Shown: in pieces, positions 27,217 to 42,754 of the stretch
How positions within the stretch are numbered: the stretch's first letter is position 1
Layout: each line of letters begins with the position of its first letter
IMG/VR virus record: IMGVR_UViG_3300037067_009382
Coordinates: 26,409-90,408 of that record
Reading direction: 5' to 3' (one strand)
Source: a virus
Lineage: Duplodnaviria; Caudoviricetes
Length of the DNA stretch: 64,000 nucleotides
Program-made: the position numbers and the translations under genes
Notes under the pieces: generated by a model
What the model saw: the letters and a program-made list of their open reading frames with translations, nothing else
Database searches by the model: none
Told to the model about the DNA's origin: nothing

Positions 27217-28554
27217 TTAGTTCAGATCAACGATCTTCGCCTGTTTCCGGAAGTCGTAGCACTTTAGTTCCATCGTGGTACGGAACAGACCCACAATCGC
27301 AAGTTTCCCTACGATGATAGGATCTCTCTGTTCGAAGTACTCGGTGGTGAATGCAACGCCAACTTCCAACCATCTGGTATCCAGGACATAGAAGTTGGAA
27401 CCGGCCAGGGTGAAATCGGCCTTCGTGGATTTCGGAGTATCGACATCGGCGAACAGAGCGATACCATCGTAGGTGCTGACTTGGAAGCCAGCTCTCTGAC
27501 CGGGAATGTTTTCTTCTCCACCACGTTTGACCTGAAAGTCGCCTGTCTCCATATAGCGTCTTTGCGCCTGGAGAGCCTGTTTGAAATGACGCTGTTGATC
27601 GGTACCGGTTAAGAGCAGATCGGGTTCACCACCGTAGAATCTGACCCTCTCGATAGCCTCATCAACATAGTCGGTATCGAAATCGCGTGGTACACCATCA
27701 CCGTCAAAGACGTTACCTGCATTGTATGCCAGAGCAGTTCTGGTAGCGCCGCCAGGTGTAGCAGCGGTGAAGTTGTAGCAGTCGACGTTCTGGTTGTTGG
27801 CACCGGCTACAGTACGGCCATCTTCCTCGATGATGTCATCGAGTGAGGTCATACCTTTTCTGCTCTTGACGGTAATAGCATCGCTTTGGACCAGAGCCGC
27901 AGCGGCACCACCACCAACTAGAGTAAAGCCGATCACACCGGTTGTGGTATTGATAGCGGTCAGGAGAATGCCTCCTGCGGCCGCATTCTGGCTTTCCCAA
28001 AGGATATCGCCAATTCTGAAGGCAGAGGGATTGGAAACCGCGGCAACGCCTGTCAAGCCGGCAGTTTTGACAACATCGACAGCGGAACACAACAGTTCCT
28101 GTTGGAGTTCCTTGACGTGGTCAATTTCACCGAACTGTAACTCTTTTGCCATCGCGTCTCCGATACCGCCCTCTTTGGTTGCAATCCATTGAGCCAGTTC
28201 GGATGAACCGACGGGTGTCACTACCTGGCGAGGCAGTGAATATACTGATTGGTAAGTCTGCTTACCAACATCGGGCAGGGCCTCAATCTCTCCGATAGGT
28301 TTAGATTGAGCGTTCCTCGCAGAACGGATACGCCAACCGATAACGTTACCCCAGGTGTTATGACGCAGGAGATTGAAGAACTTCCTTTGAGAGTTCAACG
28401 AGTCCCACACCTTTGCACCGTAGGTGACATTAAAGAAGTCGGCAACCTGCAGCGGGTCGTCAGCCTTCAACAGGTATTCGCCTGCTAGCCCGAAGGGACG
28501 TGACTGTGATCGCTGAATAAACTCCAGCACCGTTTGTTTAAGCTGTGGACTCAT
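27217..28554 (-). CDS. Major capsid protein (HK97 fold) with insertion domain
   Basis: 445 aa after the scaffold; E-loop, GGEPDLLLTG, GFQVSTYDGIALFAD and terminal RTTMELKC...AKIVDL patterns. Confidence 0.85.
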   Translation of the reverse strand: MSPQLKQTVLEFIQRSQSRPFGLAGEYLLKADDPLQVADFFNVTYGAKVWDSLNSQRKFFNLLRHNTWGNVIGWRIRSARNAQSKPIGEIEALPDVGKQTYQSVYSLPRQVVTPVGSSELAQWIATKEGGIGDAMAKELQFGEIDHVKELQQELLCSAVDVVKTAGLTGVAAVSNPSAFRIGDILWESQNAAAGGILLTAINTTTGVIGFTLVGGGAAAALVQSDAITVKSRKGMTSLDDIIEEDGRTVAGANNQNVDCYNFTAATPGGATRTALAYNAGNVFDGDGVPRDFDTDYVDEAIERVRFYGGEPDLLLTGTDQQRHFKQALQAQRRYMETGDFQVKRGGEENIPGQRAGFQVSTYDGIALFADVDTPKSTKADFTLAGSNFYVLDTRWLEVGVAFTTEYFEQRDPIIVGKLAIVGLFRTTMELKCYDFRKQAKIVDLN

Positions 28555-29358
28555 TTACATCCCTCCTCTTAAAGGTAGTCCACGAGTGTTGCCCAGGAAA
28601 GCTCTATACGCTGGGTCGATTGATCTTCGCATCGCTATAATATTTTCCCAGGATTGACCCGTGACCTGCTTCGCTACGTTCTCAGCCTCGGTTTGCTCAT
28701 CGCCAGGAGCTTCCACGGACTTTCGAATTTCGCTCGGCTCGGCTTTTTCTACATTGGCCGGTAAGGCGCCTGAGGCTGTGACAAAACCTTCTTCCGCCAT
28801 CTTCTGTTGGAAGCGAGCATTGACCATTTCCTCAACTTTGTCAGCCGGGATCATTTTTGCAATAGTCCCGTTGAGACGACTGATTTCCTGATTAGCATTA
28901 TCGAGCTGTTTCGCCAGTACCTCTTCGCGCTTGGACGCAATATTCCCGTAGGGGAACGGGAAGGCTTTCTTGACATCCTTGGCTTCCGAAATGGGGTAGG
29001 GGTACGGCTTCTCTTTATCGCCCGGTTCACATTCTTCTGCATTGGTGACTTCAGGCTTCCAAGGACCTTCGGCGGAAACTTTCTTGGGAGCGGTTTGAGT
29101 AGTCTGTTCCATTTCTTTCTTGACGGCTTTCTTTGCCTCGGCCATCAATTCGGGCGGGAACCCTTTCTCATCCTTTTCCTTCGCCTCTTCCTCTTTTTCC
29201 TTTTTGTCTTCTGGTTCATCCTTCGCGGGCTCTTCAGCCTTAATGACCTGCCTTAATAGGCTGTTGGTCTCTTCTTGGGCTTTGAGCAGTTGCGCGAGGG
29301 GTCCGCCCTCAGTGGACTTTTCGAGGGTGGCTGTGTTGGTCTCGTTCTCTTTCTTCAA
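28555..29358 (-). CDS. Capsid scaffolding protein
   Basis: Acidic, coiled-coil 267 aa between protease and capsid; TTG start with AGGAGG. Confidence 0.7.
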   Translation of the reverse strand: MKKENETNTATLEKSTEGGPLAQLLKAQEETNSLLRQVIKAEEPAKDEPEDKKEKEEEAKEKDEKGFPPELMAEAKKAVKKEMEQTTQTAPKKVSAEGPWKPEVTNAEECEPGDKEKPYPYPISEAKDVKKAFPFPYGNIASKREEVLAKQLDNANQEISRLNGTIAKMIPADKVEEMVNARFQQKMAEEGFVTASGALPANVEKAEPSEIRKSVEAPGDEQTEAENVAKQVTGQSWENIIAMRRSIDPAYRAFLGNTRGLPLRGGM

Positions 29359-29393
29359 CGTGACCCTCCTCTTTTGGACTTTCTTGTCTTCAA
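29355..29393 (-). CDS. 12-aa upstream ORF MKTRKSKRGGSR
   Basis: AGGAGG + TTG start; its TGA overlaps the scaffold TTG start (TTGA). Confidence 0.4.
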   Translation of the reverse strand: MKTRKSKRGGSR

Positions 29394-29468
29394 GGTACTC
29401 GACCTCCTACCATTAGAAGACCCAGCGCTAGAGACACTAGTGCGATGTACTGTGTGCCTCTATTATTA

Positions 29469-29498
29469 AGTATAAGTGTTGCGCCTGGCCCAAAACAA
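29469..29498 (-). promoter_or_regulatory. Putative late promoter for scaffold/capsid operon
   Basis: TTGTTT-18-TATACT, with CTTGTTTTGG shared with the promoter at 43308. Confidence 0.5.
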
Positions 29499-29545
29499 GG
29501 GGACTCGGGGTAATAAAAGGAGAGTTTTAAGGGATTTGCGGAAAA

Positions 29546-31039
29546 TTACGAGGCTAGATACAACCCTTTGGTATCTAGCGTAGCTGAATCGGCTTCTACG
29601 TCATCGCACTTCAGTAGGATGAACTTCGCTGCCTGGTTCTTTCCTTCCTCGCAGATCGTGACTTCATGCAACTCGAGGTTGGTTACATCCCACCAGCAAA
29701 CATTATTCTCGCATACGTACTTCCGCCCGAGTGCCTCGCCCCCGATTGAGAAGCTCCGTAGTATGCCTTTCCTGATGAGGTCTATGACATCACGAGCGAT
29801 CTTGACATCGTCTCGAAGGATGCACACCACAAATAGACCAATATCGTCTACCTGGCTAATCCATTTCTTTCCATCGTTGTCAGTATATTCTGGCACTACT
29901 TCTGCTACTTGAGCATTGCGGTGCTTGATCATTACGTTGCGGAACTTAGGTTGCTCCATAAACTTCGCGAAGGCTTTCTTCAAGGCATACAGTGGAATGC
30001 GATGTCCTTCTTTATCACGCACCACCGGAGAAGCGTATCCGGCGATAACAACTTTCTTCTTTTCGGCTTTCTCAATAATGAATGCCTTATCCATCAATCC
30101 TGTATACATGGGTGTCGCAGTATCAAAGACGAGAGTATCTTCCTTCAGCAGATAGTTGCCCGTTACGATATAATGCATCCCGGCGAAGCCTAACTCGATC
30201 TTCTTCTGGGAGTTAAGTCCATCCACGACCCTGATTGTTGCCTCACGCATTGGCTCACTATCGGAAATACCAAATAGCTCGCACAGGTACCAATTTCGTG
30301 GTCTTCCTGCCTCGAGCGAAATTAACTTGTCGAGGGCCATTGCGATCTGTACCCTATCGTCGGGATGATTTAGGTCATCAGCAGCGTCCTCGAGCACACT
30401 GTATACCTTACCAGCGTCTGCACGCTTCATCTCGAGTTCTTCTGAATCAACCCCACCTGCTCCAAGCTTGTCGATGTCACGTAACTCTCTATCGTGAGCG
30501 AGATATCGCTTCCGAACATCGTCGGCACATTTCATTACGCGGGGTCTGAGATTAGTTGCAACAACGTTCAACTGATTATCAGTCACGGTCTTATCAGGAT
30601 TGGCTAAATCCAAATACGTTTGGAGCATCTTGAAATAATGCTCGTGAGGCCCACCATATCCCTGGATAGACTGTCTTGGGTGTCCACCCATAAACTCGCT
30701 AACACTAAAAGGCCCCTCAATCGAAACGTCGGAGGCATCTTCACCCCAATGCACCTGATCCACTGGATGGGGTTCATCATATCCCACGTGTCTATGCTCT
30801 TCAATAGTAGGATTTACCCGTGGAAGAATTTTGCGGATAATAAATTGTTGGGCAATTCCAACTGTCTCGATAGCCTTATGCATAGCCTCACCGGGCATAT
30901 AGTCGACCTTCTCGTTTGTCCCTATCGTCAGAGGTAAGGACTCATCGGTCGTATCTGGTTCGTATTTCTCTACGGGACGCTTTGAGATTTCCTCGTGCAA
31001 CTTCTTCAGTTCGGACTCGTCCATCTTTTTGAGATCCAT
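29546..31039 (-). CDS. Prohead protease (C-terminal HK97-type protease domain, long unknown N-terminal region)
   Basis: IAGYAS..VRDKEGHRI, MIKHRNAQVA, LRSFSIGG, LHEVTICEEGKNQAAKF. Start moved to ATG 31039 (MDLKK) behind AAGGAG. Confidence 0.88.
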   Translation of the reverse strand: MDLKKMDESELKKLHEEISKRPVEKYEPDTTDESLPLTIGTNEKVDYMPGEAMHKAIETVGIAQQFIIRKILPRVNPTIEEHRHVGYDEPHPVDQVHWGEDASDVSIEGPFSVSEFMGGHPRQSIQGYGGPHEHYFKMLQTYLDLANPDKTVTDNQLNVVATNLRPRVMKCADDVRKRYLAHDRELRDIDKLGAGGVDSEELEMKRADAGKVYSVLEDAADDLNHPDDRVQIAMALDKLISLEAGRPRNWYLCELFGISDSEPMREATIRVVDGLNSQKKIELGFAGMHYIVTGNYLLKEDTLVFDTATPMYTGLMDKAFIIEKAEKKKVVIAGYASPVVRDKEGHRIPLYALKKAFAKFMEQPKFRNVMIKHRNAQVAEVVPEYTDNDGKKWISQVDDIGLFVVCILRDDVKIARDVIDLIRKGILRSFSIGGEALGRKYVCENNVCWWDVTNLELHEVTICEEGKNQAAKFILLKCDDVEADSATLDTKGLYLAS

Positions 31040-31040
31040 A

Positions 31041-31220
31041 CTACGCTCCTTTAGGCCCCGCCTCTTGTGTATTATACGTTTCGCCATCACCTTCCGGACT
31101 CGGTGGAATCTCGTCGATCTTAGTGACTCCCTTTGGTTCGGGTGTCACCCTAAATCCGAATTCTTCCTCGGCTGCAAAAATCTCGTCACGAAACTTTTTC
31201 CTCTCTTCGGGTGTCATCAT
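31041..31220 (-). CDS. Small hypothetical protein (59 aa)
   Basis: AAGGAG RBS, MMTPEERKKFRDEIF... Confidence 0.55.
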   Translation of the reverse strand: MMTPEERKKFRDEIFAAEEEFGFRVTPEPKGVTKIDEIPPSPEGDGETYNTQEAGPKGA

Positions 31221-31230
31221 ATGTCTCTCC

Positions 31231-33918
31231 TTAATCGGGCTCGGCTCCGAATCCATCTACAAACTTCTCCATTCCAGCGCGATCGATATGCCAAATCTCA
31301 CTACCGCTCGAAGTCTTCAATTTCATCGTGAACCCTAACTTTTTATAGAACCCCTTTGCGCTCTCGACTGGGATGAGTGTCACTTCTTGAATCTTCTCAT
31401 CATCGAGCGTATTCATAAACAGCTCGGCCATCAGACGTGAGCCAATATGTGTAACATGCCGTGCATCAGTTGACTTAGGATAATTCCAGGGCGCTGAAGC
31501 CAAGAAGTCAACGTGCACAGCATCGCCCTTCGGTCGTTTGAAGTACGCCATAACTCCTTGAGTTTGGCCCTTCGCGGTAATATGCATTCCCTGGTCGTTT
31601 CCTCGAGAGATTTCGGCCATTGCTCCAACTCCGTCAGCAAGTGACTCCCTAACCTGGGCGCGTTGTTCGGGAGTGATCGCCCTCTTGACGATTGCATCGT
31701 GCGCTTCAGTCCATCGTGCCTCTGCATCGCCAAGTCGCTCTTGATCAGTTGAGTGTACTGTATGGGGTAGATCTAGCACATCATCGGAAGTGGTTGGTCT
31801 ACCGGCTCCAACGTGCTTGGGTGCCTCTGTAGGTGCAACTGTCGCAGGTAGCTGTGTTGCTTCAGGTTTCAGTCCGAGCTGTTTAGCCTGCTCTGGTGTT
31901 ACCCAGAATTTTTGATAGAACGTCTTCCCACCTCGTGTGATAGGTTTATTGACAAGAACCTTACCTACGTTAGAGAAGGCTTTCTCCATCTGGGTAATTC
32001 TATCCTCGGGCTTGATTTCTACACCCTGAGGAATGCCATCGAACACCTCTTTCAGCGTTTCGGGATTTCTTAGTCCATAGTTCTCGTGTAGTATCTCTTT
32101 GAATACTCCCAGGTTATAATTATCGATCTCCGCTTCGGTTATCCATTTGTAGTCGGTATGCTCTTCGGACAGCTTAACATCGCCCGTAGCACTTGCTTCG
32201 TAGAAGATTACGGGTTTAGTCTCCTTCCCGAGCTTGAGCACCTTTACAGTAAAGCAATCGGGATCGGATATCATTAGACCCGCTTCCTCTTTAACTTCGC
32301 GTGCGAGTGCATCCTCAAGCTTCTCTTCGTCCTTCAAATGTCCACCGGGTAGATCCCACCAATCGCTACCCGCATCTTTCAATATCAAGATCTTGCCATC
32401 CTTACGAATGACAGCCTTAACCGAAAGTTTAATGTCCTGAGCTTTAGTGAATGGGATGCCTCGTTTACTCATTTCGTCTTCGAGCACCACTATCATTACG
32501 TCATTGGGCAGGGCGTTCTCTGGTGAGAGCGGATCCCAGATCGTCATAGGTTCGTCGGTGCTAATTCCCTCACTAGATTGTCCTGGAAACAGATTCGCGA
32601 TCGTTCTCTTGCGGCCACTACCACCAAACGTTGGAGTGAAGCCTGTAGATGTAACTGTCGCTCCACCAAAGCCTCCATCTCCGCCACCCTCTTTCTCGAC
32701 GTTACCATATCGAGTTGTGGTTCGTTCGCCCTCTCGATAAATCTCATCTGCCACGCGCAGCGCATTGGTAAGGTTAGTAGAGCGTTCGGACATCTCCTTC
32801 TGTACACGTTTCAGAGCTCCTGTGTACTGTTGCCAAAGTTCAGCAGTACCTCTATCCTTATTCGCTAACGCATTCTCGATCTCACTATCGAGAATGCCTA
32901 TCGCCTCCGCAATCATGTCATTATCGTATAGTAGTCGTGCCTTTGCAATACCCCGAGAGGTATAGCCTGAGATCGGAATCTGAGATAGGCGGTCGAGAGG
33001 TGTTGTATCGTCAGGTTCACTCTTCATTATTATATTAGTGGCTCGTGGTAGGTATGCGGTAAAGGTTTTGAACTCACCCTTTCGTATTGTATCGGTTCCG
33101 GCCATTTCCACACCTAGTATGCCACCTACGGAAACATTCATATCAGTATTAACACTCTGCCCTAATCGCAGGTAGTACTTACCTTCAAATTCAATTGCGT
33201 CTGCTTTAGGCATTCCCGAAGATTTTGCAACGCGCGTGTCGTCAATTCTCACTTGACCAGTCTCGGGTGCTCTAGCAGGCCCCCATCCACGAGAGTAAAG
33301 CTTACAGCGTCCCTTCGGACTAATCGAGCCGATAACCTTAACGCATCCACCTGAATCCTTTGCGGGCTCACTCGCTCCTTCCTTCTTGATGAAAGACTTA
33401 CATGTCGCACACCTATCTGAAGAGGAGGAGTTGTCCACATACGAAGCCTCATTCTTGGAAATCTTAGCCTTAGCCAGATGGGCTTGCAAAATGAGATGGC
33501 TCGTTAACATAGTACCGGCGAGCAACTCCTCGAGCAATAGCTCATCTCCCTTGGAGAGCAGTTCACCTAATTTTCCCATCCCTATTGTTTCGGCCCATTC
33601 TTTACTGATCGGCCCTACGGCTACCTCATAGCGGAACATCTTATCGCTTGGAGCTGATTTCGCAACCACTAGCATCTTTGCAGTGGTTCCACTTACAGGC
33701 CCGTTATACTCTGTCGGTAGGGCCTTCTTAACTCCGTGGGTTGCTGAAATAGCAGCAACGATTGAAGCTAGGCCGTCTTCGGAGTAATCGTTAAACCTCT
33801 GGGCGAATTCCTCTTTCGTTATATCACCTGGTAGTGATTCAACATCGCACCAGTAGGTAACCGCCTCCTGTGACATGCCTTTCAGAAGTTCTTTTACGCT
33901 TGCTTCATAATCAATCAT
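31231..33918 (-). CDS. Multidomain head-associated protein (HiPIP-like Cys motif, ligase-OB-like segment, Nudix hydrolase, GNAT acetyltransferase)
   Basis: CATC...C.KVIGSISPKGRCKLY; exact Nudix box GGHLKDEEKLEDALAREVKEEAGL; GNAT tail IGSRLM...SAKGFYKKLGF. Start at ATGA overlap 33918. Confidence 0.8.
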   Translation of the reverse strand: MIDYEASVKELLKGMSQEAVTYWCDVESLPGDITKEEFAQRFNDYSEDGLASIVAAISATHGVKKALPTEYNGPVSGTTAKMLVVAKSAPSDKMFRYEVAVGPISKEWAETIGMGKLGELLSKGDELLLEELLAGTMLTSHLILQAHLAKAKISKNEASYVDNSSSSDRCATCKSFIKKEGASEPAKDSGGCVKVIGSISPKGRCKLYSRGWGPARAPETGQVRIDDTRVAKSSGMPKADAIEFEGKYYLRLGQSVNTDMNVSVGGILGVEMAGTDTIRKGEFKTFTAYLPRATNIIMKSEPDDTTPLDRLSQIPISGYTSRGIAKARLLYDNDMIAEAIGILDSEIENALANKDRGTAELWQQYTGALKRVQKEMSERSTNLTNALRVADEIYREGERTTTRYGNVEKEGGGDGGFGGATVTSTGFTPTFGGSGRKRTIANLFPGQSSEGISTDEPMTIWDPLSPENALPNDVMIVVLEDEMSKRGIPFTKAQDIKLSVKAVIRKDGKILILKDAGSDWWDLPGGHLKDEEKLEDALAREVKEEAGLMISDPDCFTVKVLKLGKETKPVIFYEASATGDVKLSEEHTDYKWITEAEIDNYNLGVFKEILHENYGLRNPETLKEVFDGIPQGVEIKPEDRITQMEKAFSNVGKVLVNKPITRGGKTFYQKFWVTPEQAKQLGLKPEATQLPATVAPTEAPKHVGAGRPTTSDDVLDLPHTVHSTDQERLGDAEARWTEAHDAIVKRAITPEQRAQVRESLADGVGAMAEISRGNDQGMHITAKGQTQGVMAYFKRPKGDAVHVDFLASAPWNYPKSTDARHVTHIGSRLMAELFMNTLDDEKIQEVTLIPVESAKGFYKKLGFTMKLKTSSGSEIWHIDRAGMEKFVDGFGAEPD

Positions 33919-34976
33919 ACCATCACTCCCCATGGCTTCATTTCCGGAGCCAGTACTGTCTTAATCACGTTTCCGATTCCCACTACGAATCCATCTTGCG
34001 AAATGTGGTGATACCAATCCTTGGGCGGTAACTGCTTCTTTGAGAGATTCGCAATGCTCTCTTTGATTACTCCAAAGCCCGTTCGTTCTATCTCCCTCTG
34101 CCATGCATGAGTCGAAACTCTTAATGGTTGGGCTTGAGGCACGGCCGTATGGGTCGTTGAGGCGGGTTCCTCAGGTTTAACGTGTACAGTCTGCATAAAC
34201 GTCTTCCCGTCACGAGTTACCTGTACCTTCTGAGGTTGTGTTCCAACGGGTATAGCCTTCTGGAATTCAAGTGTAGCCTTTCTCGCGAATGAGGCAACAC
34301 CCTCGAGATCACTAAGCGTTCCTCTCCCAGAGGCCAGATTTCTATCGAACATCATGTGCCTAAGTTCGGCACTCTTCCGAACCATATCACGAATCGCGAT
34401 CTTTGTTTCGTCGTCAGTCTTCTCAAGCTTATCTGGTGAGGCATCAAACCTCTCCCAGACGTTCAATTCCTCTTTTACTAGCTGAAGGCGATCCAGTATT
34501 TCATCTGAATCCATCTTCAACCCCTGGCGGATCATCCTCACAGCCTCATTCAGATATCCCGATACAGTAGACCAGTGGGAATCCGTACAACTTACGCAAG
34601 AAGGGGATTTTTCACCCAGGGTAATTTCGGATTTTACCGTGTCTTTGCCTTGAGGCTGTATATTAGTATTGTCCTCTTCTGCTAGTAATCCCGCTTGATT
34701 TCGATTGATCAATTCCGCAGTCAAAACCGCGGCGAGTATCTCGGCATCCTCTTGTTTGATCTTTCGGCGTGCCTGTTTTGCAACAAGACTCGCCCAAGCC
34801 TCGCGCAGCTCGTCTTCCTTTATGTCGTCAAGACAGTGCTCGTCTTGGGCTATTTTATTGAGGGCTTCTTCTCCACGAATGAACGCTAGGGCACCCACCT
34901 TTCGCGCTATCTGGGATGAACCATACGGTCCACTCTTCCCCCAGTAATATCCGTCCTTCTTTTCTAGTATTGCCAT
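33915..34976 (-). CDS. Head-associated protein with putative C-terminal RNase-like domain
   Basis: Shared tag VTRDGKTFMQTVHVKP followed by STHAWQREIER...IKTVL. Confidence 0.55.
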   Translation of the reverse strand: MAILEKKDGYYWGKSGPYGSSQIARKVGALAFIRGEEALNKIAQDEHCLDDIKEDELREAWASLVAKQARRKIKQEDAEILAAVLTAELINRNQAGLLAEEDNTNIQPQGKDTVKSEITLGEKSPSCVSCTDSHWSTVSGYLNEAVRMIRQGLKMDSDEILDRLQLVKEELNVWERFDASPDKLEKTDDETKIAIRDMVRKSAELRHMMFDRNLASGRGTLSDLEGVASFARKATLEFQKAIPVGTQPQKVQVTRDGKTFMQTVHVKPEEPASTTHTAVPQAQPLRVSTHAWQREIERTGFGVIKESIANLSKKQLPPKDWYHHISQDGFVVGIGNVIKTVLAPEMKPWGVMV

Positions 34977-34984
34977 TTCTTCAC

Positions 34985-35494
34985 CTACCGTATCCTATCT
35001 AATCTGTGCATCAAGAAATCGGGCATGTGCCTGATCCCATCAGCTACTGCATACGCCATATAGTATTTTGGTGCCTCCGCTGGAATGGGGTGTTCCTGTG
35101 TACCGACTACTCTGAATCCGATATTCCTTCCACCATATCGCAAGTGTGCGATCGCACCAGTTTCGTATACCCGTTGGTAGGGTTGAATCGCTATTGAGCG
35201 CTCTCCATGACCACCTCGAGCACGTATGTGACCTTGAACCAATCGAGGAGTGGGATTTCGTATGACCCATTCTCTATGGCCCCATTCAACTGCTGCCGCA
35301 TGAATTGCTCTATAGCCTACCTCAAATCCATCGTGCGTATTCCGATCGAAGTATCCTGAGTGTAGCAGTGTCGCATCATCGGTGAATCGCGAAACGTTGC
35401 GCTGCGATTCAGCAAAGATAAACTCGCCGGTATCCTTAACTCCCTCTACGAGGGCGTCCACAATCTCGTTAATTGATTCCTTCGATATGTGCAT
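34985..35494 (-). CDS. Minor capsid/neck protein (HK97 gp10-like)
   Basis: FIFAESQRNV...LLHSG...VGYRAIHAAAVEWGH...PKYYM pattern. Confidence 0.6.
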   Translation of the reverse strand: MHISKESINEIVDALVEGVKDTGEFIFAESQRNVSRFTDDATLLHSGYFDRNTHDGFEVGYRAIHAAAVEWGHREWVIRNPTPRLVQGHIRARGGHGERSIAIQPYQRVYETGAIAHLRYGGRNIGFRVVGTQEHPIPAEAPKYYMAYAVADGIRHMPDFLMHRLDRIR

Positions 35495-35501
35495 AAAACT
35501 C

Positions 35502-37742
35502 CTACGAGGTTACGACGATACCTTTGATATCCTCGTTATCGATTGGAGTAGCTTTCCAACCCGCCTCGCGCAATTTAGCGGCCCTTCGACTTAAGTCGCC
35601 CTTTGTCTCACCCGAACCTGCTGCGACTACTGCAAAGTGTCCAGTCTCCTTTCCCTCGGCGTCATAAGTATGATAGGTTGAACCATATACGGTATAGCCC
35701 TTACTCGTAGAGCTATTTAGTTGGTCTGCCGCTTCCCTAGCTAAGGATTCGGCCTTATTCCGATCGAACGTCTTATGGCCCTGACCCTTTAAGTTTTCGA
35801 ATACCTTCACCTTACCAGTCTCTTCAGGACTGAGTTTGCTTGGTTCTTCCGATCCACCACGTTCTTCGGGCTTGCCATAGGTCTCTTCAAACTCTGACAA
35901 ATCCTGTTCGGCGTTACGCTTCTCCTCAGGAGTTTTGGCACCATTTATTCGTGAGACTATACTTCGGCGCTCACCACGATAATTCTGATCAGTGAAGATA
36001 GGTCGTGAAGGCTCGTAAGGCTTTCGCTCAATACTAGCGGGTTTATCACCTTCGAAGCCTCCCGTACCCTTAAAGCCTCCCTGATTAGGGTTCAGTTTGA
36101 TCTTTGCTTCACCCTCGGTTGCTTCTGGTTTTACAAATACGGTCTGAGTGAAGGTCTTTCCACCTCGGGTAACTGAAATCTTCTTCGGAACGAGACCCGC
36201 TTTGAACAATCCTTCTTGTGCACCCGAATCCTGCTTGATGACCTTCTCGTGAACCATTTCATCCTCAGCAAAGATTTGACCGTCAGCTCGGAGCACGTAT
36301 CTATGACCCTTATGGACGATTGTTGCATCACCATCTTTGGTCAACTCGACAACCTTCGCATCATCGCCAAGGCGTCGTAGAATATTTCGTTGCTCGTCGG
36401 AATAGAGTTCCTGCTTTTGCAACCAGGCGATTCTCCGGGCCTGAGCAAAGTCTTCCTCAGTCAGGTCACCCTTCATTTTGCGAATCTCGCCTAGTTCGAA
36501 TTTGAACGTCCTTACGTAGTTCTCGTCCTGCTTGAACATCTTATCCCACAGATCGTCGACTACTGAGTTGACCGCTTTCGCGACTTCCATCTCGTCGGCG
36601 GGTTCAATTATCTCGATCGGATGAACGGGTTCCTTTGCTTTTGAGCTCCTACCAGGATCTTGCGGTTGCAAGTTTGTAGGCTGAATCGGACTCATAATAT
36701 CGCTCTTCTTGATTTTGGCAACGTCAAACTCCGTCGCTTCTTGCCCAGCGGGAGTCATCGTCATCGGATGAGGTGCGATCTTCAGTCTCGATTTATCAGC
36801 AATCGCTGGGCGGGTTTTACTCGGAGGGACTGCCCCTCCCTCTCTCACGGTTTCGTTTGGTGCGTCACTCTTCATTATCTGGGAGAGTCTAACTGAAGCA
36901 CCACTGTTGTGATTGACACTCTTTTCGACACTCTTCAGTTTCGTATAGTAATCAGGAACTTCTCTCAAGTGGGCGTAAGCGATCTTCGCTGTCTCTTTCG
37001 GATCACCATGAGTGACATCCTTATGCTCAGTCTCGACCTTCATCCCCATCTTAAATTCGTCGAAGTTATATCGATTGAAGTTAATGCCGATTGACTGCCC
37101 AAGCTTGTACAGCTCGTCATCAGACATCTTTGCTAATTTCACTCCCGGATCGATCACTCCGAATTTAGTCGCTCCCGGAGGTTGGCTTGGAGTCTGGATT
37201 GTCCCATTAACTCTTACGCCATCAAAGGTAGCAACGTCAGGAGGTGCATTAGTCCCCTCCCTTGACGTATCGGGTTCGGCTGAAACACCCACCTTCTCTT
37301 CAGGTTCCTGTTTCCTGAGGTGAAGGTTGTCGATCGCTTTATTGATAAGCGCTTCAGCATCGAGGGGCACGTCCTCCTTTCCAATAAACGATCCTTCTTG
37401 CGCTGGCATCTTCATATGCCCTAACGCTGTTCGCTTTATCGGTTCGGCTGGTTCAATTCCTGGTGTCATTTGAGGTATGGGAACAAACGATGATGGATCC
37501 TTTTTCTTAATGGATCGCCCACCAGTCCTCAGAACGAGTGATTTGATCAACGCAGCCTCTTCTGACTTCAGAACAAACAGTTCCGCTATCTCGTCTTCGT
37601 TCATCTTCTCCATCTTGTGTCCTCCCCATCCAGAAGCATATGCGGCGGCTTCTTGGGCGCGTGCTTCACCTTCGGTTTCAAATTCACCGTGACCTTCGCC
37701 CCATTTCCACTTTCCCGTTGCTTTATCTTGATGTACAGGCAT
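35502..37742 (-). CDS. Large head-associated multidomain protein containing a DUF5661-like domain
   Basis: FKMGMKVETEH...TAKIAYAHLREVPDYYTKL; shared tag VTRGGKTFTQTVFVKP. Confidence 0.65.
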   Translation of the reverse strand: MPVHQDKATGKWKWGEGHGEFETEGEARAQEAAAYASGWGGHKMEKMNEDEIAELFVLKSEEAALIKSLVLRTGGRSIKKKDPSSFVPIPQMTPGIEPAEPIKRTALGHMKMPAQEGSFIGKEDVPLDAEALINKAIDNLHLRKQEPEEKVGVSAEPDTSREGTNAPPDVATFDGVRVNGTIQTPSQPPGATKFGVIDPGVKLAKMSDDELYKLGQSIGINFNRYNFDEFKMGMKVETEHKDVTHGDPKETAKIAYAHLREVPDYYTKLKSVEKSVNHNSGASVRLSQIMKSDAPNETVREGGAVPPSKTRPAIADKSRLKIAPHPMTMTPAGQEATEFDVAKIKKSDIMSPIQPTNLQPQDPGRSSKAKEPVHPIEIIEPADEMEVAKAVNSVVDDLWDKMFKQDENYVRTFKFELGEIRKMKGDLTEEDFAQARRIAWLQKQELYSDEQRNILRRLGDDAKVVELTKDGDATIVHKGHRYVLRADGQIFAEDEMVHEKVIKQDSGAQEGLFKAGLVPKKISVTRGGKTFTQTVFVKPEATEGEAKIKLNPNQGGFKGTGGFEGDKPASIERKPYEPSRPIFTDQNYRGERRSIVSRINGAKTPEEKRNAEQDLSEFEETYGKPEERGGSEEPSKLSPEETGKVKVFENLKGQGHKTFDRNKAESLAREAADQLNSSTSKGYTVYGSTYHTYDAEGKETGHFAVVAAGSGETKGDLSRRAAKLREAGWKATPIDNEDIKGIVVTS

Positions 37743-37763
37743 AATGCACCTCCCGTGCTTCCC

Positions 37764-38603
37764 TTATGTTCCAAATCTCGGTGTTCTTACTATTCCACAC
37801 CTCTGATGATAAATGTCACTTGTTTCCGAATCCGGTATTGTTTCCGCTCCTGGAAGTTGTAAGTTGAGAGCGGTGCGTTTCGTCGGATCTCTCCACATCT
37901 GCTGGATCTGGCTAAAGGAGTATGGTCCACCCTGTGCGAAGACGCGACTTATCGGTTTCGTACGTTGATCAATCTTTGCTACCCAGTGGTAGTCATAATT
38001 ATCCTTCTCGGGATCACTTTCCCAAGCGAGTAATCGCCCTTCACCTGATAGCTTTGCCATCTCGGTTCTGACGATCCTCTGGATTCTCCAATCCGCATCC
38101 TCATCAACAAACTTCTTCATCTCCAAGGTCATTCGTTGTAGATCCGGCGGAGTAGTTGCAAACGCATCTGTAATTACCCGTTCGAACTGCTGTCGAGCTT
38201 CGTTAGCGAAGGTAGTCAGTGCTGGGATGAACCCTGTAGGTGTTTCAGTCAGGACTTTCATCACCATTGTATCTCTGGTGGGAGATGGTTGATAGCCTCC
38301 CTCACGCATACCTTGCTGAATTCCCGCATCCATTAGCGCTTTGAGTACCGTACGGGAATCTTCATCGGCAGTTCTTCTCCAGACATCGATTTCCTTTCGT
38401 ACCGCATCTACTGCTTGTGCCTTTGACATCCAGGGCTTAATCACTCGAGTTAAATCAGCTACCCGAGTATTGAACAACTTAAATACCAGCGAGTTAAGCT
38501 GGTCTCCTAACTTTATAGTTCCATAGGGATGGTTACTCGTATTTGCTTTCGAGAGTAGCATTGACTGCATCCCGTAACCTGATTGACCCCCACCACCCTG
38601 CAA
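37764..38603 (-). CDS. MuF/SPP1 gp7-like head morphogenesis protein (possibly the C-terminal part of a portal fusion)
   Basis: RIQRIVRTEMAK, YHWVAKIDQRT, HQRCG; frame stays open upstream of 38603 and has no convincing RBS. Confidence 0.8.
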   Translation of the reverse strand: MQGGGGQSGYGMQSMLLSKANTSNHPYGTIKLGDQLNSLVFKLFNTRVADLTRVIKPWMSKAQAVDAVRKEIDVWRRTADEDSRTVLKALMDAGIQQGMREGGYQPSPTRDTMVMKVLTETPTGFIPALTTFANEARQQFERVITDAFATTPPDLQRMTLEMKKFVDEDADWRIQRIVRTEMAKLSGEGRLLAWESDPEKDNYDYHWVAKIDQRTKPISRVFAQGGPYSFSQIQQMWRDPTKRTALNLQLPGAETIPDSETSDIYHQRCGIVRTPRFGT

Positions 38604-40351
38604 ATCGCCTTGACCACTTTCAGCTCCCTCAGTTCCTTCAACCGGTACATTTTGAGCTCCGCTGGAGGTTGAGGCATTTCTCCTGGTCCAGGTGCGGCAG
38701 GACCCGCTTCTCCACCAAATGGAGTTCCGGTACCACCAGGCATTCCAGCTCCCTCTGTACCCATTGTCGGTCCCATAAGAGCGTTTGCCTCTCCCGCACG
38801 TTTGCCTTCACCAGAGAATACGAACTCGCCCTTAGATGTAAGTTTAGCGGTAAAGCCCATCTGTACGAGTGTATTTGCATATGTAGCCTTAGAGTTCTTA
38901 ACGCGCCAGGCATTCTCTTCCGATTGCTCCTCGGGTGTTACTAGGTGCAAGAAGTAATCGTTAATGCCATATGCCTCACAGAACTTAGGCAATACCTTTT
39001 CATTATATATAGTCTGGGCTGACTCAACAACACGTGCCTGCACGACTAACTGCACTTCAGATATAGACGCACCTCTCATGTCACCAGGGGCACCTTGGAA
39101 GATTGCAGTCACTCCGTAAAGACCAGCAACGCGTTGGCGTATCTCATCCCTGATGGGAAGATAGTCGAGTTCCTCTAATGTGTAACCAAGTTTGACCCAC
39201 TCTACTCTCCCATGGCCTGTTTGACTCTCGATTGCCATAATCGGTATGTAGTGCGGATTCTGTTCGAGCTCCATCGTCCACTCACGACGCTTCTCTTCGA
39301 TCGCTTCTGCGTTCTCGGAAATGATTCCAAGAATACCTACTGGGAGTTGCCTCTCGTAGAAGTAATCGTACAAGAACCTATCCATACCGATGAGTGTAAG
39401 TGCCTTCTCGTAGACGGAGAAGATTGGTGAATACCCGTAGGTCTTGCTCGGACTGTACTTAGAGTAGTGGATAACTTCATCGCGAGTGTAGTAAAGCATT
39501 TTCCCACGGTAGCGTACTTTATACATCGCAGGAACAAGTTGAGCGCCACACATAATTTTCTGTCCGTCAGAGTCAACTTCTTGAGAGCACGTTTCTCCTG
39601 CCTTTCCCACGTGATCGCGATGGCGTAAGCAGAACCAGGTATTCTGATCTGGATAGCCGTTCGTGTCGAGATCGAACTCCGTAAAGATAGGATCGAGGCG
39701 CTCAATTGAATCAACGCGGGCTCTTTGAACCTGACCATGCTCGTCCAGTTGGTAAGTCTTTGCCATCAGAAGGAAAGCATCATCAACGATCTGTACGTCG
39801 TCCTCACCCTCTTTCAGGACGTCAACAAAGGATTGACCGAACTTGTTAACTTCCTTGAAGTGTGCATTGATGCGCTTTAGCTCTTTCGGATTGGGTTCAC
39901 GCGTTAGTGAGTTACAGGTCGGACAGACTTTTACGTCTTCCTGAAATTCCTGTTCACAATTATCGTTCGTACACTTCGATATAAACTTCGGTACGAACGT
40001 TACACCCCTCCGGAAAATCTCATTCCTCAGGTTAAGTGTAGCTGTTCGAATGTCCGAGACGTTAAACGCAATAGTATACAGGTCATCCAGAGCACGCCTT
40101 CTCTGGAAGTAACGTTGTCTGCGTTCGCGGTAGCTAAACTCGTCAACCCCTAGATAGCCCGTTTTTGCGAAGCTCGACTTGATATGAACGGGCGACCCAC
40201 CACTTATGGTTTGGCCATTAAGACCCATTACAGGTAGTTGAGTCGCGTCTGCTAGACGCTGTATCTCGTCTCCCTGCTGTTTTATGATCGTATTGGCTTC
40301 GTCCAACGTCCTGGGAGGGGCTGGCTTCTCTTGTTTTATTACCTTAGCCAT
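38513..40351 (-). CDS. Portal protein
   Basis: Follows terminase; DDAFLLM, EVIHYSKY, YGYSPI, FYERQLP.GIL, IRQRVAGLYGV patterns. Confidence 0.88.
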   Translation of the reverse strand: MAKVIKQEKPAPPRTLDEANTIIKQQGDEIQRLADATQLPVMGLNGQTISGGSPVHIKSSFAKTGYLGVDEFSYRERRQRYFQRRRALDDLYTIAFNVSDIRTATLNLRNEIFRRGVTFVPKFISKCTNDNCEQEFQEDVKVCPTCNSLTREPNPKELKRINAHFKEVNKFGQSFVDVLKEGEDDVQIVDDAFLLMAKTYQLDEHGQVQRARVDSIERLDPIFTEFDLDTNGYPDQNTWFCLRHRDHVGKAGETCSQEVDSDGQKIMCGAQLVPAMYKVRYRGKMLYYTRDEVIHYSKYSPSKTYGYSPIFSVYEKALTLIGMDRFLYDYFYERQLPVGILGIISENAEAIEEKRREWTMELEQNPHYIPIMAIESQTGHGRVEWVKLGYTLEELDYLPIRDEIRQRVAGLYGVTAIFQGAPGDMRGASISEVQLVVQARVVESAQTIYNEKVLPKFCEAYGINDYFLHLVTPEEQSEENAWRVKNSKATYANTLVQMGFTAKLTSKGEFVFSGEGKRAGEANALMGPTMGTEGAGMPGGTGTPFGGEAGPAAPGPGEMPQPPAELKMYRLKELRELKVVKAICRVVGVNQVTGCSQCYSRKQIRVTIPMEL

Positions 40352-41210
40352 TCTCTGCTCCTAAAACTGCTTTAGCTCTCCGAAGAGCATCGTGTGCCCT
40401 CATCTGGGCGTTCACAGCTCTGTCGTAATCATTTTTATAGTACCTGACCTCACTCTTTGGGACGCGATACTCCATATGCTGCCAGGTATCGCGTGTTTGT
40501 TTTACACTCTCGTCTGAACTCTTTTGTTCGCGCTCGAGCGTCTCAAAGATTTCCTTTTTGTCCCCATCGTTCAAGTAAGAGAAATTCGGATTAACCTGTA
40601 CGGTAGAATGTTCCTCGTCAAACGATACCTTATAGAGACCGTGCTGGTTGATAGACTCCGCTAGCCTCTTTAGTTTGGCATTAACTTCTGGCTTTTGCCT
40701 ATCCCGAGATTCCTTCGTAGCCCACTCATGGAAATTCCAGGTGATAGTTGCACCACCATTATCTTTTGAGCGCACATCAGCTCCTGTGGAAGAGTGGCCC
40801 CACCCTTTTACACGATCACTTGCTATCCAGGTAGAGATCGGTACGTTGACCTTTGACGCTGCGAGTTTAACATCTCCCGCAGTCCTCGTATATATGCGGT
40901 TCCCTATAATAGCACCCTTAAGGGTATTTGCAAACTTCGAGCGGATCTTTTCTTGTGCGTCTAGTTGCTTTTCGCGTGGATCAGTCTCGGCAGGTTTTAT
41001 TGAGGTCGGTTGGGCTTCACCCGTCGGTTTCTGTCCCATCGCCTCCGCTTGCTTTGCACTCACCCAGAACGTTTGTACGGTCTGTTTTCCTCCACGCACG
41101 ATCGTCTTCTGAACCTTTACCTTTCCAGCTGACGACCAATCAACTTTCTGAAGGAGTGCGTTCTGTTCTGATTTTGCTACAATCAGTTGGGCTACTTCAT
41201 TTTCGTTCAT
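40344..41210 (-). CDS. Head-associated hypothetical protein with N-terminal shared tag
   Basis: KVKVQKTIVRGGKQTVQTFWVSA near the N-terminus; lies between TerL and portal. Confidence 0.6.
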   Translation of the reverse strand: MNENEVAQLIVAKSEQNALLQKVDWSSAGKVKVQKTIVRGGKQTVQTFWVSAKQAEAMGQKPTGEAQPTSIKPAETDPREKQLDAQEKIRSKFANTLKGAIIGNRIYTRTAGDVKLAASKVNVPISTWIASDRVKGWGHSSTGADVRSKDNGGATITWNFHEWATKESRDRQKPEVNAKLKRLAESINQHGLYKVSFDEEHSTVQVNPNFSYLNDGDKKEIFETLEREQKSSDESVKQTRDTWQHMEYRVPKSEVRYYKNDYDRAVNAQMRAHDALRRAKAVLGAENG

Positions 41211-42754
41211 ATCAGTGAAGACCTCCGCGTGAATCTACTTCTGGGATTCCTCCGTGAAGCAAGCTCGCGTGAGCGACTGTTAAACACTTCACCTAGACTC
41301 CCCACTATTCTTGCGCCCCCAGTTTTCGTTCCCTGCTTCTTTCGAATAGGTTCGGACGCAAACCAACTTGCCATCAAAATATCTTTTGACCTACCGATTG
41401 GGTAAGTCTCCATTTCCTCTAACCATAGACAGATCGGGCATTGGCACGCAAATGAGTGATTTCCAGCTCTCGGGATAATCCAACCGCTCTGCTCGAACTC
41501 GAGTGAAAGGCCAGGTAGACCCGTTTCGGGATCAGCCTTACTTAATGTCGTGAAGGGCTTGATCAGCATCTTCTTCTCGGGATCGAACTCGTGCATCCAC
41601 TGAATTAGTGTCTGCTGATAGGCGTTGTTTTCAACCATTGTTATCTTCGGAGACCACTTATCGTTGATCTTAAACAGTTCCCTTACCGTCTGGGGGGCAG
41701 TCATACGCTTTCGAACTATTTCGAGCGGAATACGTTTCCGTCGCACTGCGTCCCAAGCGATTACGAATATGACCGTATACGCAGCGTCGGTCGAAGTTCC
41801 AACAGCAAGGTCAACTCCCACGTATCGTGGAAGCTCGAATATCCACGGGTACATCTTCCCGAACTCGAGTGAGGTATCAAAACAGTTACTCAGTAGTGGC
41901 TCAAGTGGGAACAATGTCTCGTCAGCGGATAGAGCAACGTTCAAGAACTGCCTCTGGAATTCGCGTTCTCCAATCTCGCCCATACGTTTCATAAGTTGCT
42001 CGAGACTCCATTTGCTTCCCCACAGTGGTCTACCATCATCCTGAATCGCCTTGTACACTTTGCTATAGTACGCTGGATTGCCCATTAACTCGTGTGTCAG
42101 GTCATCCAAATGCCAAGCAGTGCCAATATAAATCATACGCCCTTCTGGCTCGAGCAGGTTAATCCAAACTGAGTAGAAGGTCTTCTTCACGACTTTCCTC
42201 ATCGCAGGATATTGAATTGCGTTTCGGAAGTCGATAGGGTCATCAAATACCTCTAGGTCGGCCCGTCCACCTGTAGCGGTTGACGTGATACCTAATGCCT
42301 CAACAGAAGCATCAGCCATGACCTTCGAGCGTTCCACTATGATCTTGTGCTTCGTCCATGTGCCCTCCAGTGCTGGTTTTAGGGCAGGAAACACTTTATG
42401 CAATCGCTCGTTCTTGCGAAGGTTATCGGAGATTTCAAATAATCTGTCTGCTGCTTTTTCATCCGACTGGGCTATCAGTTTGATTCTCAAGTCATGGTTC
42501 TTTCCTAACTCCCACAGCACTCTAGCAATTGAGAGTTGAGATGACTTGCCGTGATCACGTGGCCCGAGTATGAGTGCTTTCGGGTGGCCCGTCGGATTCC
42601 ACTCGGGATGATAAAATATGCCTTGCCACTCTTCGTGGAAGTCTTGTTGATCCCACTGCATAACATAACGACAGAAGTCATTCGGATTCTCTCGAGCGAG
42701 AAGGATCTGAATGTCCTCTTCGAGTACACTTAAACTTGCTACGGTCTCAACCAT
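41207..42754 (-). CDS. terL: Terminase large subunit
   Basis: Walker A GPRDHGKS, TGGRAD, Walker B EVFDDP, IGTAWH, nuclease GVDLA and KDILMA. Confidence 0.93.
   Translation of the reverse strand: MVETVASLSVLEEDIQILLARENPNDFCRYVMQWDQQDFHEEWQGIFYHPEWNPTGHPKALILGPRDHGKSSQLSIARVLWELGKNHDLRIKLIAQSDEKAADRLFEISDNLRKNERLHKVFPALKPALEGTWTKHKIIVERSKVMADASVEALGITSTATGGRADLEVFDDPIDFRNAIQYPAMRKVVKKTFYSVWINLLEPEGRMIYIGTAWHLDDLTHELMGNPAYYSKVYKAIQDDGRPLWGSKWSLEQLMKRMGEIGEREFQRQFLNVALSADETLFPLEPLLSNCFDTSLEFGKMYPWIFELPRYVGVDLAVGTSTDAAYTVIFVIAWDAVRRKRIPLEIVRKRMTAPQTVRELFKINDKWSPKITMVENNAYQQTLIQWMHEFDPEKKMLIKPFTTLSKADPETGLPGLSLEFEQSGWIIPRAGNHSFACQCPICLWLEEMETYPIGRSKDILMASWFASEPIRKKQGTKTGGARIVGSLGEVFNSRSRELASRRNPRSRFTRRSSLI

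Follow-up and report, generated by a model that had tools for sequence, protein, structure and literature searches.

A conserved hairpin cassette at module boundaries of phage head-block proteins, a probable label for capsid-carried cargo

Four tagged proteins in the head-gene block

We analyzed a stretch of 64,000 nucleotides (the window) from a virus of the Caudoviricetes (Duplodnaviria), corresponding to positions 26,409 to 90,408 of the IMG/VR record IMGVR_UViG_3300037067_009382. This virus record has 90.4 kb, of which the window is the right-hand 64 kb, and its completeness is rated at 64%. Four genes on its minus strand, located in the head block between the genes for the terminase and an S78 prohead protease, encode proteins of 900, 353, 746 and 288 amino acids (aa), termed p900, p353, p746 and p288, each of which contains one copy of a cassette of ~31-45 residues that we call the tag. 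The cassette is composed of a short leader that often ends with hydrophobic-x-Lys-Ala/Ser/Gly, a 24-residue basic amphipathic beta-hairpin (predicted) and a disordered linker. Judging from sequence comparisons, the tag, for which we found no name, probably marks proteins that travel inside the capsid.

The four peptides had first been noticed in a reading of this DNA made from its letters alone (the sequence-only reading), which took them for a cleavage-exposed tag of packaged effectors. It had placed them correctly: all four were found letter for letter in minus-strand open reading frames (ORFs), and the protein described there as 896 aa long corresponds to the ORF at 31231-33933, with 900 aa (895 aa from the second Met). 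That the motif is common to four otherwise unrelated head-block proteins was borne out by three approaches which agree with each other. A six-frame regular-expression search of the window with the R[GD]GK..Q pattern and its flanks gave exactly four occurrences in real ORFs. Pairwise BLASTP showed the tag to be the main segment common to the tagged proteins (e.g., 25 aa with 68% identity between p353 and p746, E 3e-6; 70 aa with 37% identity between p288 and p900, E 6e-11). Finally, a non-circular hidden Markov model (HMM), built from the six tags of the related IMG/VR contig L006 only and searched against the six-frame window translation, recovered the window copies with 45.8, 43.7, 39.4 and 24.3 bits (i-E 9e-16 to 5e-9), whereas none of 20 codon-shuffled windows gave a score above 0 bits. 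The nucleotide identity among the copies is only 39-61%, the same residues being encoded by different codons, which points to selection on the peptide; a DNA repeat or a recombination site as the explanation is ruled out by the differing codon usage.

PHROG and Pfam scans gave the order TerL, p288, portal, MuF, p746, p169, p353, p900, S78 protease, scaffold-like protein and major capsid protein (MCP). The features of this block are listed below; slashes mark the putative cut after lysine, h stands for a hydrophobic residue, and bit scores are those of the tag.

41207..42754, minus strand: terminase large subunit, TerL (phrog_38, E 6e-58)
40344..41210, minus strand: p288, 288 aa, directly downstream of the large terminase; N-terminal leader (MNENEVAQLIVAKSEQNALL), tag, linker and a C-terminal domain of ~200 aa without a family hit
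41028..41162, minus strand: tag cassette of p288, aa 17-61; LLQK/V, then the hairpin GKVKVQKTIVRGGKQTVQTFWVSA; subtype b; 83 bits, and 24 bits with the independent HMM
38513..40351, minus strand: portal, 612 aa (phrog_18178, E 1e-49)
37764..38603, minus strand: MuF-like minor head ORF, 279 aa (PF04233, E 2e-4, below cut-off); overlaps the portal in another frame
35502..37742, minus strand: p746, 746 aa; leader-like motif at aa 47-76, DUF5661 at aa 214-274 (E 1.5e-14), tag at aa 504-548, C-terminal domain
36099..36233, minus strand: tag cassette of p746, aa 504-548; GLFK/A, then GLVPKKISVTRGGKTFTQTVFVKP; subtype a; 82 bits, and 46 bits with the independent HMM
34985-35494: ORF of 169 aa (p169) among the cargo genes, without a family hit and without a tag
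33915..34976, minus strand: p353, 353 aa; N-terminal domain at aa 1-242, tag, linker and, as C-terminal domain, 75 aa with no recognised fold
34146..34280, minus strand: tag cassette of p353, aa 233-277; EFQK/A, then IPVGTQPQKVQVTRDGKTFMQTVHVKP; 86 bits, and 39 bits with the independent HMM
31231..33933, minus strand: p900, 900 aa; NUDIX at aa 507-603 (E 2.7e-13), tag at aa 645-689, disordered linker at ~692-722, GNAT fold at ~724-895
31867..32001, minus strand: tag cassette of p900, aa 645-689; QMEK/A, then FSNVGKVLVNKPITRGGKTFYQKFWVTP; subtype b; 90 bits, and 44 bits with the independent HMM
29546..31090, minus strand: prohead protease, 514 aa; S78 domain at aa 338-490 (PF04586, E 1.9e-8, above cut-off)
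28555..29358, minus strand: p267, charged scaffold-like protein, 267 aa; six h-x-K-[AS] motifs, no family hit
27217..28554, minus strand: MCP, 445 aa, with SU10-like relatives; h-x-K/A at aa 28-31

NUDIX, GNAT and DUF5661 were the only recognisable Pfam domains in the tagged window proteins; p900 has two of them (NUDIX and GNAT), and p353, p746 and p288 have at most one each. The four proteins gave no hit to MuF (Phage_Mu_F, PF04233) and no peptidase domain in Pfam at E<=0.1, and no homologues of DarB, DarA or Hdf were detected in the window head block by Pfam or PHROG. The sequence-only reading was right in assigning a GNAT fold to the final domain of p900, which matches GCN5-type acetyltransferases (Foldseek, top E 5.6e-8, probability 1.0); the Pfam match is below cut-off in the window and above cut-off in the L006 orthologue. 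Its 'RNase-like' final domain could not be upheld, the only leads being those of a language model (0.82-0.84) to DUF3781 and RelE-type clusters. The final domains of p353, p746 and p288 had no family hit, and for that of p353 the ESM Atlas returned nothing but sub-threshold leads. The p288 gene occupies the same position as Shbh1 gp97, P100 gp6 and phi812_86, and its product matches phrog_1917 weakly (E 0.0094, aa 31-90 on profile positions 89-149).

The remainder of the 90-kb virus record contained no further copy of the tag, and megablast of the tagged region revealed no match in isolated phages. A candidate fifth copy at 63377-63403 was rejected as a weak match, at chance level with the independent profile. 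It should be mentioned that a 114-aa protein of the accessory region (window 63371-63715) ends with …VNGITRTQKFWVKA; this end resembles the second strand of subtype-b tags, with a chance-level score.

Several neighbouring genes of the block deserve a comment. In L006 the portal and the MuF-like protein form a single 834-aa ORF, and tblastn of this portal-MuF protein onto the window gave alignments in two frames, one covering aa 4-528 and the other aa 569-832. Near 38513-38603 the fusion may be genuinely split, or else a low-complexity Gly/Pro stretch may contain a frameshift or an assembly indel. The sequence pattern of the 169-aa ORF may resemble that of HK97 gp10-like head-tail proteins. The position and composition of p267 suggest a scaffold role. 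The N-terminal extension of the prohead protease (aa 1-330, 30100-31090) has no Pfam or PHROG match and is conserved in L006, where the protease has 496 aa; it could possibly act as a scaffold or a cargo hub.

Anatomy of the cassette and the putative lysine site

The hairpin has the consensus GLVPKKVxVTRGGKTFxQTVWVKP, with V/F, W/Y and K/R alternatives near its end. Derived from 170 instances, the consensus of the cassette is h-h-K-A-G-[RK]-x-G-L-V-P-[KV]-K-[VK]-x-V-T-R-x-G-K-T-F-x-Q-T-[VF]-[WY]-V-[KR]-P-[EG]-[ED], in which G, K, T, F, Q, T and V each occur in ~80-95% of copies. The mean net charge of the 24-residue core is +4.6. AlphaFold2, supplied with a 40-row alignment, predicted a two-stranded beta-hairpin with a core predicted local distance difference test (pLDDT) score of 84-94; going by the alternation of residues along the strands, one of its faces would be hydrophobic (V, V, F, V, V) and the other polar/basic (T, T, Q, K, T and the Trp/Pro pair). 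In the model of the C-terminal unit of p900 the cassette is formed by a helix, the hairpin and a short helix, and is parted from the well-folded domain by a 30-residue segment with pLDDT <50; the tag thus looks structurally independent of its cargo. For this one modelled unit, the model also agrees with the linker that the sequence-only reading had placed after each tag.

Whether the tag already had a family name had been left in doubt. In Pfam, nothing matched the tag region of the four window proteins at E<=0.1, and none of the 25 families listed in a tally of 93 tag-bearing representatives covers it; the same is true of the NCBIfam families listed in the tally. The best match in a PDB sequence search with the tag had an E value of 0.33, and no chain containing the tag was found. 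The ESM Atlas gave only unrelated rows with low template modelling (TM) values for the tag region, and the papers found by literature searches contain no description of this motif. All sampled cluster members of the tag family are annotated as 'hypothetical protein'. An overlap was revealed with phrog_1917, 'virion structural protein', which is matched by 18 of the 93 representatives (best E 7.6e-27); the overlapping part is probably the tag region.

A putative protease site had been claimed for each tag. This is true of the window, where h-x-K precedes all four copies (MEK/A in p900, FQK/A in p353, LFK/A in p746 and LQK/V in p288), but over the whole family the site is missing before about one third of the tags. 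The first residue of h-x-K-[ASG] lies 16-19 positions before the anchor Arg in 102 of the 170 tags, and the motif is found at -20 to -13 in 108 of them (64%), compared with 9.3 expected, an approximately 12-fold excess. In the window, h-x-K-[AS] is 3.3-fold denser in head-module proteins (27217-41210; 40 sites in 4573 aa, or 8.7 per 1000 residues) than elsewhere (34 sites in 12836 aa, or 2.6 per 1000; Poisson p 2e-10). One h-x-K/A site is at aa 30 of the MCP, where the Lys is conserved in 27 relatives, and two further motifs (GLMDK/A and FIIEK/A) are situated at the junction of the N-terminal extension and the S78 domain of the protease. The prototype of the S78 family, HK97 gp4, matures the capsid protein by cutting after Lys103. 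On these sequence patterns, h-x-K-[A/S] looks like the cleavage code of the prohead protease, the S78 enzyme of the window is a candidate processing enzyme, and the distribution of sites fits processing by the phage's own protease.

The same observations can be accommodated by a narrower explanation, according to which the cassette is punctuation of polyproteins and nothing else: the hairpin would be an exosite that docks the prohead protease and so positions the Lys-Ala/Ser bond, and would play no role in loading, retention or delivery. Such a function would agree with the fixed spacing between motif and hairpin in 64% of tags, with the enrichment of h-x-K-[AS] in head proteins, including the boundaries in the MCP and the protease, with the location of tags at module boundaries, and with the detection of the S78 family in the window, L006, Shbh1 and two other tag-bearing records. 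However, most tags are preceded by 3-15 residues only, so that nothing worth removing lies before them, a third lack the Lys site, and S78 was not detected in several tag-bearing records, among them the complete Lalka27a genome. A strict exosite function is therefore not supported, and we consider this explanation improbable. Two members in the tally of 93 matched phrog_595, 'head maturation protease', neither of them located; a phmmer search with four prohead proteases found none among the tag-bearing representatives.

Spread of the tag and turnover of its cargo

A family profile made from ten tags was searched against 1.84 billion cluster representatives and matched 311 protein clusters at E<=1e-3, 20 of them at E<=1e-10. 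Among the 147 matches listed, the Arg anchor of the first tag is at most 30 residues from the protein start in 78 and at most 60 in 119; two or three tags are present in 16. Most tags are located at the extreme N-terminus with only 3-15 residues ahead of them. The position ahead of the final domain, proposed in the sequence-only reading, holds in the window, but elsewhere tags also part internal modules. For example, P0010 is arranged as tag, ART-PolyVal, tag, InPase, DUF5661, DUF6582, tag, … LPD1, and P0008 as InPase, tag, ART, tag. Contig L006 carries six tags in four proteins encoded between the portal and the S78 protease, two of the proteins having two tags each.

The domains associated with the tag are of effector type. 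In the tally of 93 representatives, Pfam detected Zeta toxin, AAA_33, InPase, PARP, PI3/PI4-kinase, ADPrib_exo_Tox, DUF5661, SAM lyase, ATLF-like, SNF2/helicase, MuF_C, 2H phosphoesterase, NUDIX, LPD1, LPD3, HipA-like kinase, GNAT and metallopeptidases, with M90/Mx-type peptidases in a few members. Tag proteins from IMG/VR add PARP, NUDIX with ART-PolyVal, and topoisomerase IB with DUF5661. Two to five effector-type catalytic domains are present in each of the polyvalent relatives P0006, P0008 and P0010.

It should be mentioned that two domain pairs recur across unrelated loci. NUDIX is followed by the tag within ~50-100 residues in p900 (32125-32415 and 31867-32001), in the 1555-aa protein of L006, and in L017 and L022. 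DUF5661 is found upstream of the tag in p746, in the 552-aa protein of L006, and in L019, L023 and P0010.

To describe the gene context, nine further viral loci with the tag were fetched, one of which (L022) was too short to judge. Portal, terminase or virion genes form the neighbourhood in five of the eight informative loci. The tag gene directly follows those of the large terminase and portal in L019, L020 and L024 and directly precedes those of the protease and MCP in L017 and L023. In L016, L018 and L021, it lies beside ParB-, methylase-, helicase- or kinase-type genes. The sequence-only reading would have been refuted by a tag unlinked to head clusters in other phages; linkage to head genes was observed in unrelated phages as well.

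BLASTP comparison of the four window proteins with the representatives revealed that genes break and fuse at tag boundaries. P0017 (266 aa) is a free-standing gene product composed of a leader, the tag and the C-terminal domain of p746 (46% identity). In P0019, P0182 and P0183 (291-292 aa) the leader, the tag and the GNAT domain of p900 are encoded by a separate gene in relatives. P0006 (1797 aa) is a fusion of the N-terminal domain of p353 (52% identity, at its N-terminus), a DNA-ligase domain and the body of p900 with NUDIX. In addition, P0155, an MCP 84% identical to that of the window, and tag proteins with other cargo, namely an ART toxin-type domain (P0194), ligase with NUDIX, and GNAT, have the same 66,940-base longest contig listed. 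A close relative of the window phage may therefore carry a different cargo set, the contig being taken as shared from the 66,940-base figure only. Together, the fusions, fissions and turnover are good evidence, at the sequence level, for interchangeable cargo behind a constant header, and the proposal of interchangeable effectors behind a shared module is strengthened: effector-type domains that vary follow the tag, and genes are joined or split at its boundaries.

The canonical tag is rare among isolated phages, where it was found in Bacillus phages YungSlug, Nachito and Shbh1, Lysinibacillus phages LysYB1/2, and Thermus phages Lalka8/27a/27b, Cumys and phiMa; tblastn with two further tag variants added almost no isolated phages. 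In prokaryote genomes, a first tag pattern gave nothing confirmed, and a degenerate DNA pattern for GKTFxQT[VF][WY]V gave eight stretches, a number near the rough chance estimate. Two of the eight are true tags, and so the tag is rare in species-representative genomes and prophages. Canonical tags were also detected on contigs binned to metagenome-assembled genomes of archaea (Candidatus Hermodarchaeia; Thermoplasmatales), namely in P0190 (cluster of P0054) and at L031:570-753. These contigs could belong to viruses of archaea, or to phages and have been placed in the wrong bin; part of L031 is masked with N.

The isolates give indirect support for packaging in three instances. In the Thermus Lalka phages the tag occupies residues 88-117 of a 2074-aa DarB-like methylase-helicase, which is followed by an Ulx homologue; the authors who described these phages predict packaging of the DarB-like protein by analogy with P1. 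Shbh1 gp97, encoded directly after the terminase, consists of a leader, the tag, a charged linker and a GNAT-like C-terminal sequence. Its family is spread across the Herelleviridae, with tblastn matches in 519 records. Homologues are annotated as 'virion structural protein', 'virion component', 'putative virion protein' or 'structural head protein', and as acetyltransferase in one record. The proteins phi812_86, Twort ORF088 and P100 gp6 keep the layout …h-x-K/GG…L-x-KVKRTV-x-RNGKE-x-E-x-TVYE…, charged linker and GNAT-like domain. The post-terminase genes of this family (phi812_86, P100 gp6, Twort ORF088 and Shbh1 gp97) were located at L033:2468-3268, L034:2354-3193, L035:2393-3184 and L013:8734-9624. 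In the P100-like Listeria phage CKA15, the product of the post-terminase gene CKA15_094 (32.0 kDa) was detected by 10 peptides with 45% coverage in virions purified twice in CsCl (PMC12282133).

Between phages that have capsid proteins of different PHROG families, the hairpin retains 50-70% identity. This conservation argues either for a partner that is present everywhere (DNA, for instance, or some part of the head interior that is itself conserved) or for frequent horizontal movement of tagged modules. If the partner is DNA, the hairpin could be a sequence-independent nucleic-acid-binding ribbon that tethers the modules to phage DNA, both within the head and upon entry into the host, so that anti-restriction and host-modifying effectors act in cis on the incoming genome; encapsidation would be directed by the leaders, the first module or MuF/portal. 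A charge of +4.6 over 24 residues, the conserved Lys, Arg, Thr and Gln on one face, the high conservation of the hairpin in phages with quite dissimilar capsid proteins, which a universal ligand would predict, and the presence of one copy per module, which suits a per-module tether, are all consistent with such a ribbon. The tag also heads a DarB-like anti-restriction protein, and in P1 the DarA-Hdf pairs contact both capsid and DNA (PMC12810830). On the other side, the hairpin has no similarity to a known DNA-binding fold or solved structure, tagged proteins would enter procapsids ahead of DNA, and a tether leaves the fixed upstream Lys motif and the strict head-gene association unexplained. 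On balance, we find a DNA tether rather unlikely.

The conservation extends over phages of Thermus, Bacillus and uncultured hosts, which would also suit a universal target in the cell. The hairpin might act after delivery, by addressing modules to a conserved host structure (nucleoid, ribosome or membrane) or by joining modules to each other, and have no part in capsid biology. In the second strand almost no position is free to vary, as would be expected of a hairpin that is sandwiched or oligomeric. Nevertheless, this explanation accounts for the location in the head module no better than loading of cargo does, and no resemblance to known host-targeting motifs was found; we regard it as very improbable.

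Proposed role and relation to known systems

The reading that we prefer, giving it about as much credence as doubt, is that the tag is the header of a cargo module, which serves for loading and retention in the head and allows an optional separation of modules by the protease. The sequences show units made up of the amphipathic leader, the basic hairpin (predicted), the disordered linker and a variable enzyme- or toxin-like domain, which are used singly or strung into polyproteins and which many phage lineages have among their portal, MuF, protease and capsid genes. We infer that the window's proteins may be encapsidated, cleaved, bound through the hairpin and ejected along the following lines. 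Tagged proteins would be incorporated in the procapsid ahead of DNA packaging. The S78-type prohead protease would then cut after Lys where the site is present and thereby separate the modules, and the hairpin would stay at the N-terminus of each freed module as a common handle inside the head. By this handle the module would be kept at the inner side of the capsid or attached to the packaged DNA, and it would finally leave together with the genome.

Several points weigh against this header function. (i) Several tags per polypeptide exceed the need of an encapsidation signal alone, and point to a per-module role during or after cutting. (ii) The Lys-small dipeptide is missing in about one third of tags; for instance, the two tags of the 1555-aa protein of L006 have …ELATRE… and …HYADRE… at this site, and an orthologue of the tag with GNAT, 87% identical, has Asn in place of Lys. 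Cleavage is therefore not obligatory to tag function, and, as far as the aligned copies indicate, it is the hairpin that is constant, the Lys site being optional. Moreover, the conservation of h-x-K-A could be partly structural, these residues being modelled in the helix before the hairpin. (iii) S78 was not detected in five of the ten other tag-bearing records, including the complete Lalka27a genome; since these are mostly fragments searched with limited sensitivity, what follows is that a strict link between the tag and S78 is not established. (iv) The conservation of the hairpin across capsid families argues against a specific fit to the capsid protein. (v) In Staphylococcus and Listeria phages the hairpins (…KVKRTVIRNGKEMEMTVYE…) have diverged so far that the tag profile gives them only 6-10 bits, below significance. 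The detection of CKA15_094 in virions, which is the nearest experimental support, applies to this diverged variant, and CKA15_094 is likely the equivalent of P100 gp6 (31.5 kDa), judging by gene order and size only.

A bolder version of the header function is that the hairpin is a portable address independent of the capsid type and sufficient to load any protein fused to it into procapsids and deliver it with the genome. Such an address would bind what all heads of tailed phages contain, either the DNA or some feature conserved in the portal or in the interior of the HK97-fold shell. We see this as possible, though unlikely. If it were true, it would explain why effectors are swapped freely behind a constant tag, injected anti-defence effectors would be findable by the tag alone, and the capsids of laboratory phages could be loaded with chosen proteins.

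A recognisable header would make it directly testable how tailed phages other than T4 and P1 select non-structural proteins into the head. The header would also provide a sequence handle for cataloguing the proteins that phages carry into cells. The 311 clusters, mostly 'hypothetical', include ADP-ribosyltransferases, kinases, SAM lyase, NUDIX and GNAT enzymes, likely factors of counter-defence or takeover. Related phages exchange their cargo while the tag stays the same, which hints at the way in which such arsenals evolve.

With regard to the kind of protein, the designation 'candidate new system' in the sequence-only reading went too far, as phage-type polyvalent or head-cargo proteins were described in 2017 (Iyer, Burroughs, Anand, de Souza and Aravind, J Bacteriol, PMC5512222). 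That paper presents them as multi-domain proteins encoded beside portal and terminase genes, predicted to be packaged and injected, with a repertoire of ART, InPase, Zeta, NUDIX/GNAT, MuF_C/PBECR, SNF2-helicase and LPD domains (PMC5512222). The cargo list of the tag family matches this repertoire, p900 (NUDIX and GNAT) fits into it, and the location by head genes is shared. The four tagged proteins belong with the phage-type polyvalent proteins: they have most of the features of this group, a metallopeptidase (MPTase) not being found in the window proteins. The systems differ in that processing by MPTase is proposed in the paper (PMC5512222), whereas here we propose the S78 prohead protease and an optional Lys site. 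Term searches of the text of PMC5512222 gave no mention of a short header or inter-domain element. What looks new here is thus the conserved hairpin header.

MuF or SPP1 gp7 toxin fusions resemble the tagged proteins in being portal-adjacent, in their variable C-terminal effectors and in their presumed delivery with DNA. In contrast to them, the four tagged proteins lack a MuF domain; the MuF-like protein has an ORF of its own, which in L006 is joined to that of the portal. The tag thus seems to be a carrier of another type and no variant of MuF.

By function, the closest analogue of the tag would be the T4 capsid targeting sequence (CTS), which is found in the internal proteins and in Alt. 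The CTS has a length of ~10 residues, is weakly conserved, is removed by the S77 protease (gp21) at L/I-x-E and is restricted to T4-like phages. The tag differs from it in its longer hairpin, predicted to be folded, which would be retained after the putative Lys cut, in the protease (S78) and in the motif, h-x-K-[ASG] and not L-x-E; besides, it recurs inside polyproteins and across unrelated phage lineages. What makes the two comparable is that the CTS is a short N-terminal address of unrelated proteins, which enter the prohead, are trimmed there by the prohead protease and leave together with the DNA on ejection (reviewed in PMC9026906).

The Herelleviridae post-terminase gene (phrog_1917) shares with the tagged proteins the leader, h-x-K/[GS], the hairpin and the charged linker, and p288 is encoded at the same place after TerL. 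The C-terminal domains differ, that of the Herelleviridae proteins being GNAT-like, and the match of p288 reaches only E 0.009.

In the P1 Dar system, the DarA-Hdf pairs are located on the inner capsid surface, touch DNA and organise the Dar cargo (PMC12810830). The likeness lies in the large enzymes which P1 packages in its head and which are needed in cis to protect the incoming DNA, and in the DarB-like protein of the Lalka phages, which carries the tag near its N-terminus. Loading in P1, in contrast, needs an ordered set of partner proteins (DarB, Ulx, DarA, Hdf, DdrA/B) and not a shared peptide.

A second shared motif, E-x-A-x-L-h-V-x-K-[SA]-E-[QE]-x-A-L, was noticed. It is located at aa 5-20 of p288 (41150-41196), aa 50-66 of p746 (37545-37595) and in the p746 orthologue of L006 (L006:3453-3503), and is present also at the very N-terminus of the DarB-like protein of Thermus phage Lalka27a (L014 near 6770-6815). 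Possibly it represents a leader or targeting helix distinct from the tag, which would have a Lys site of its own.

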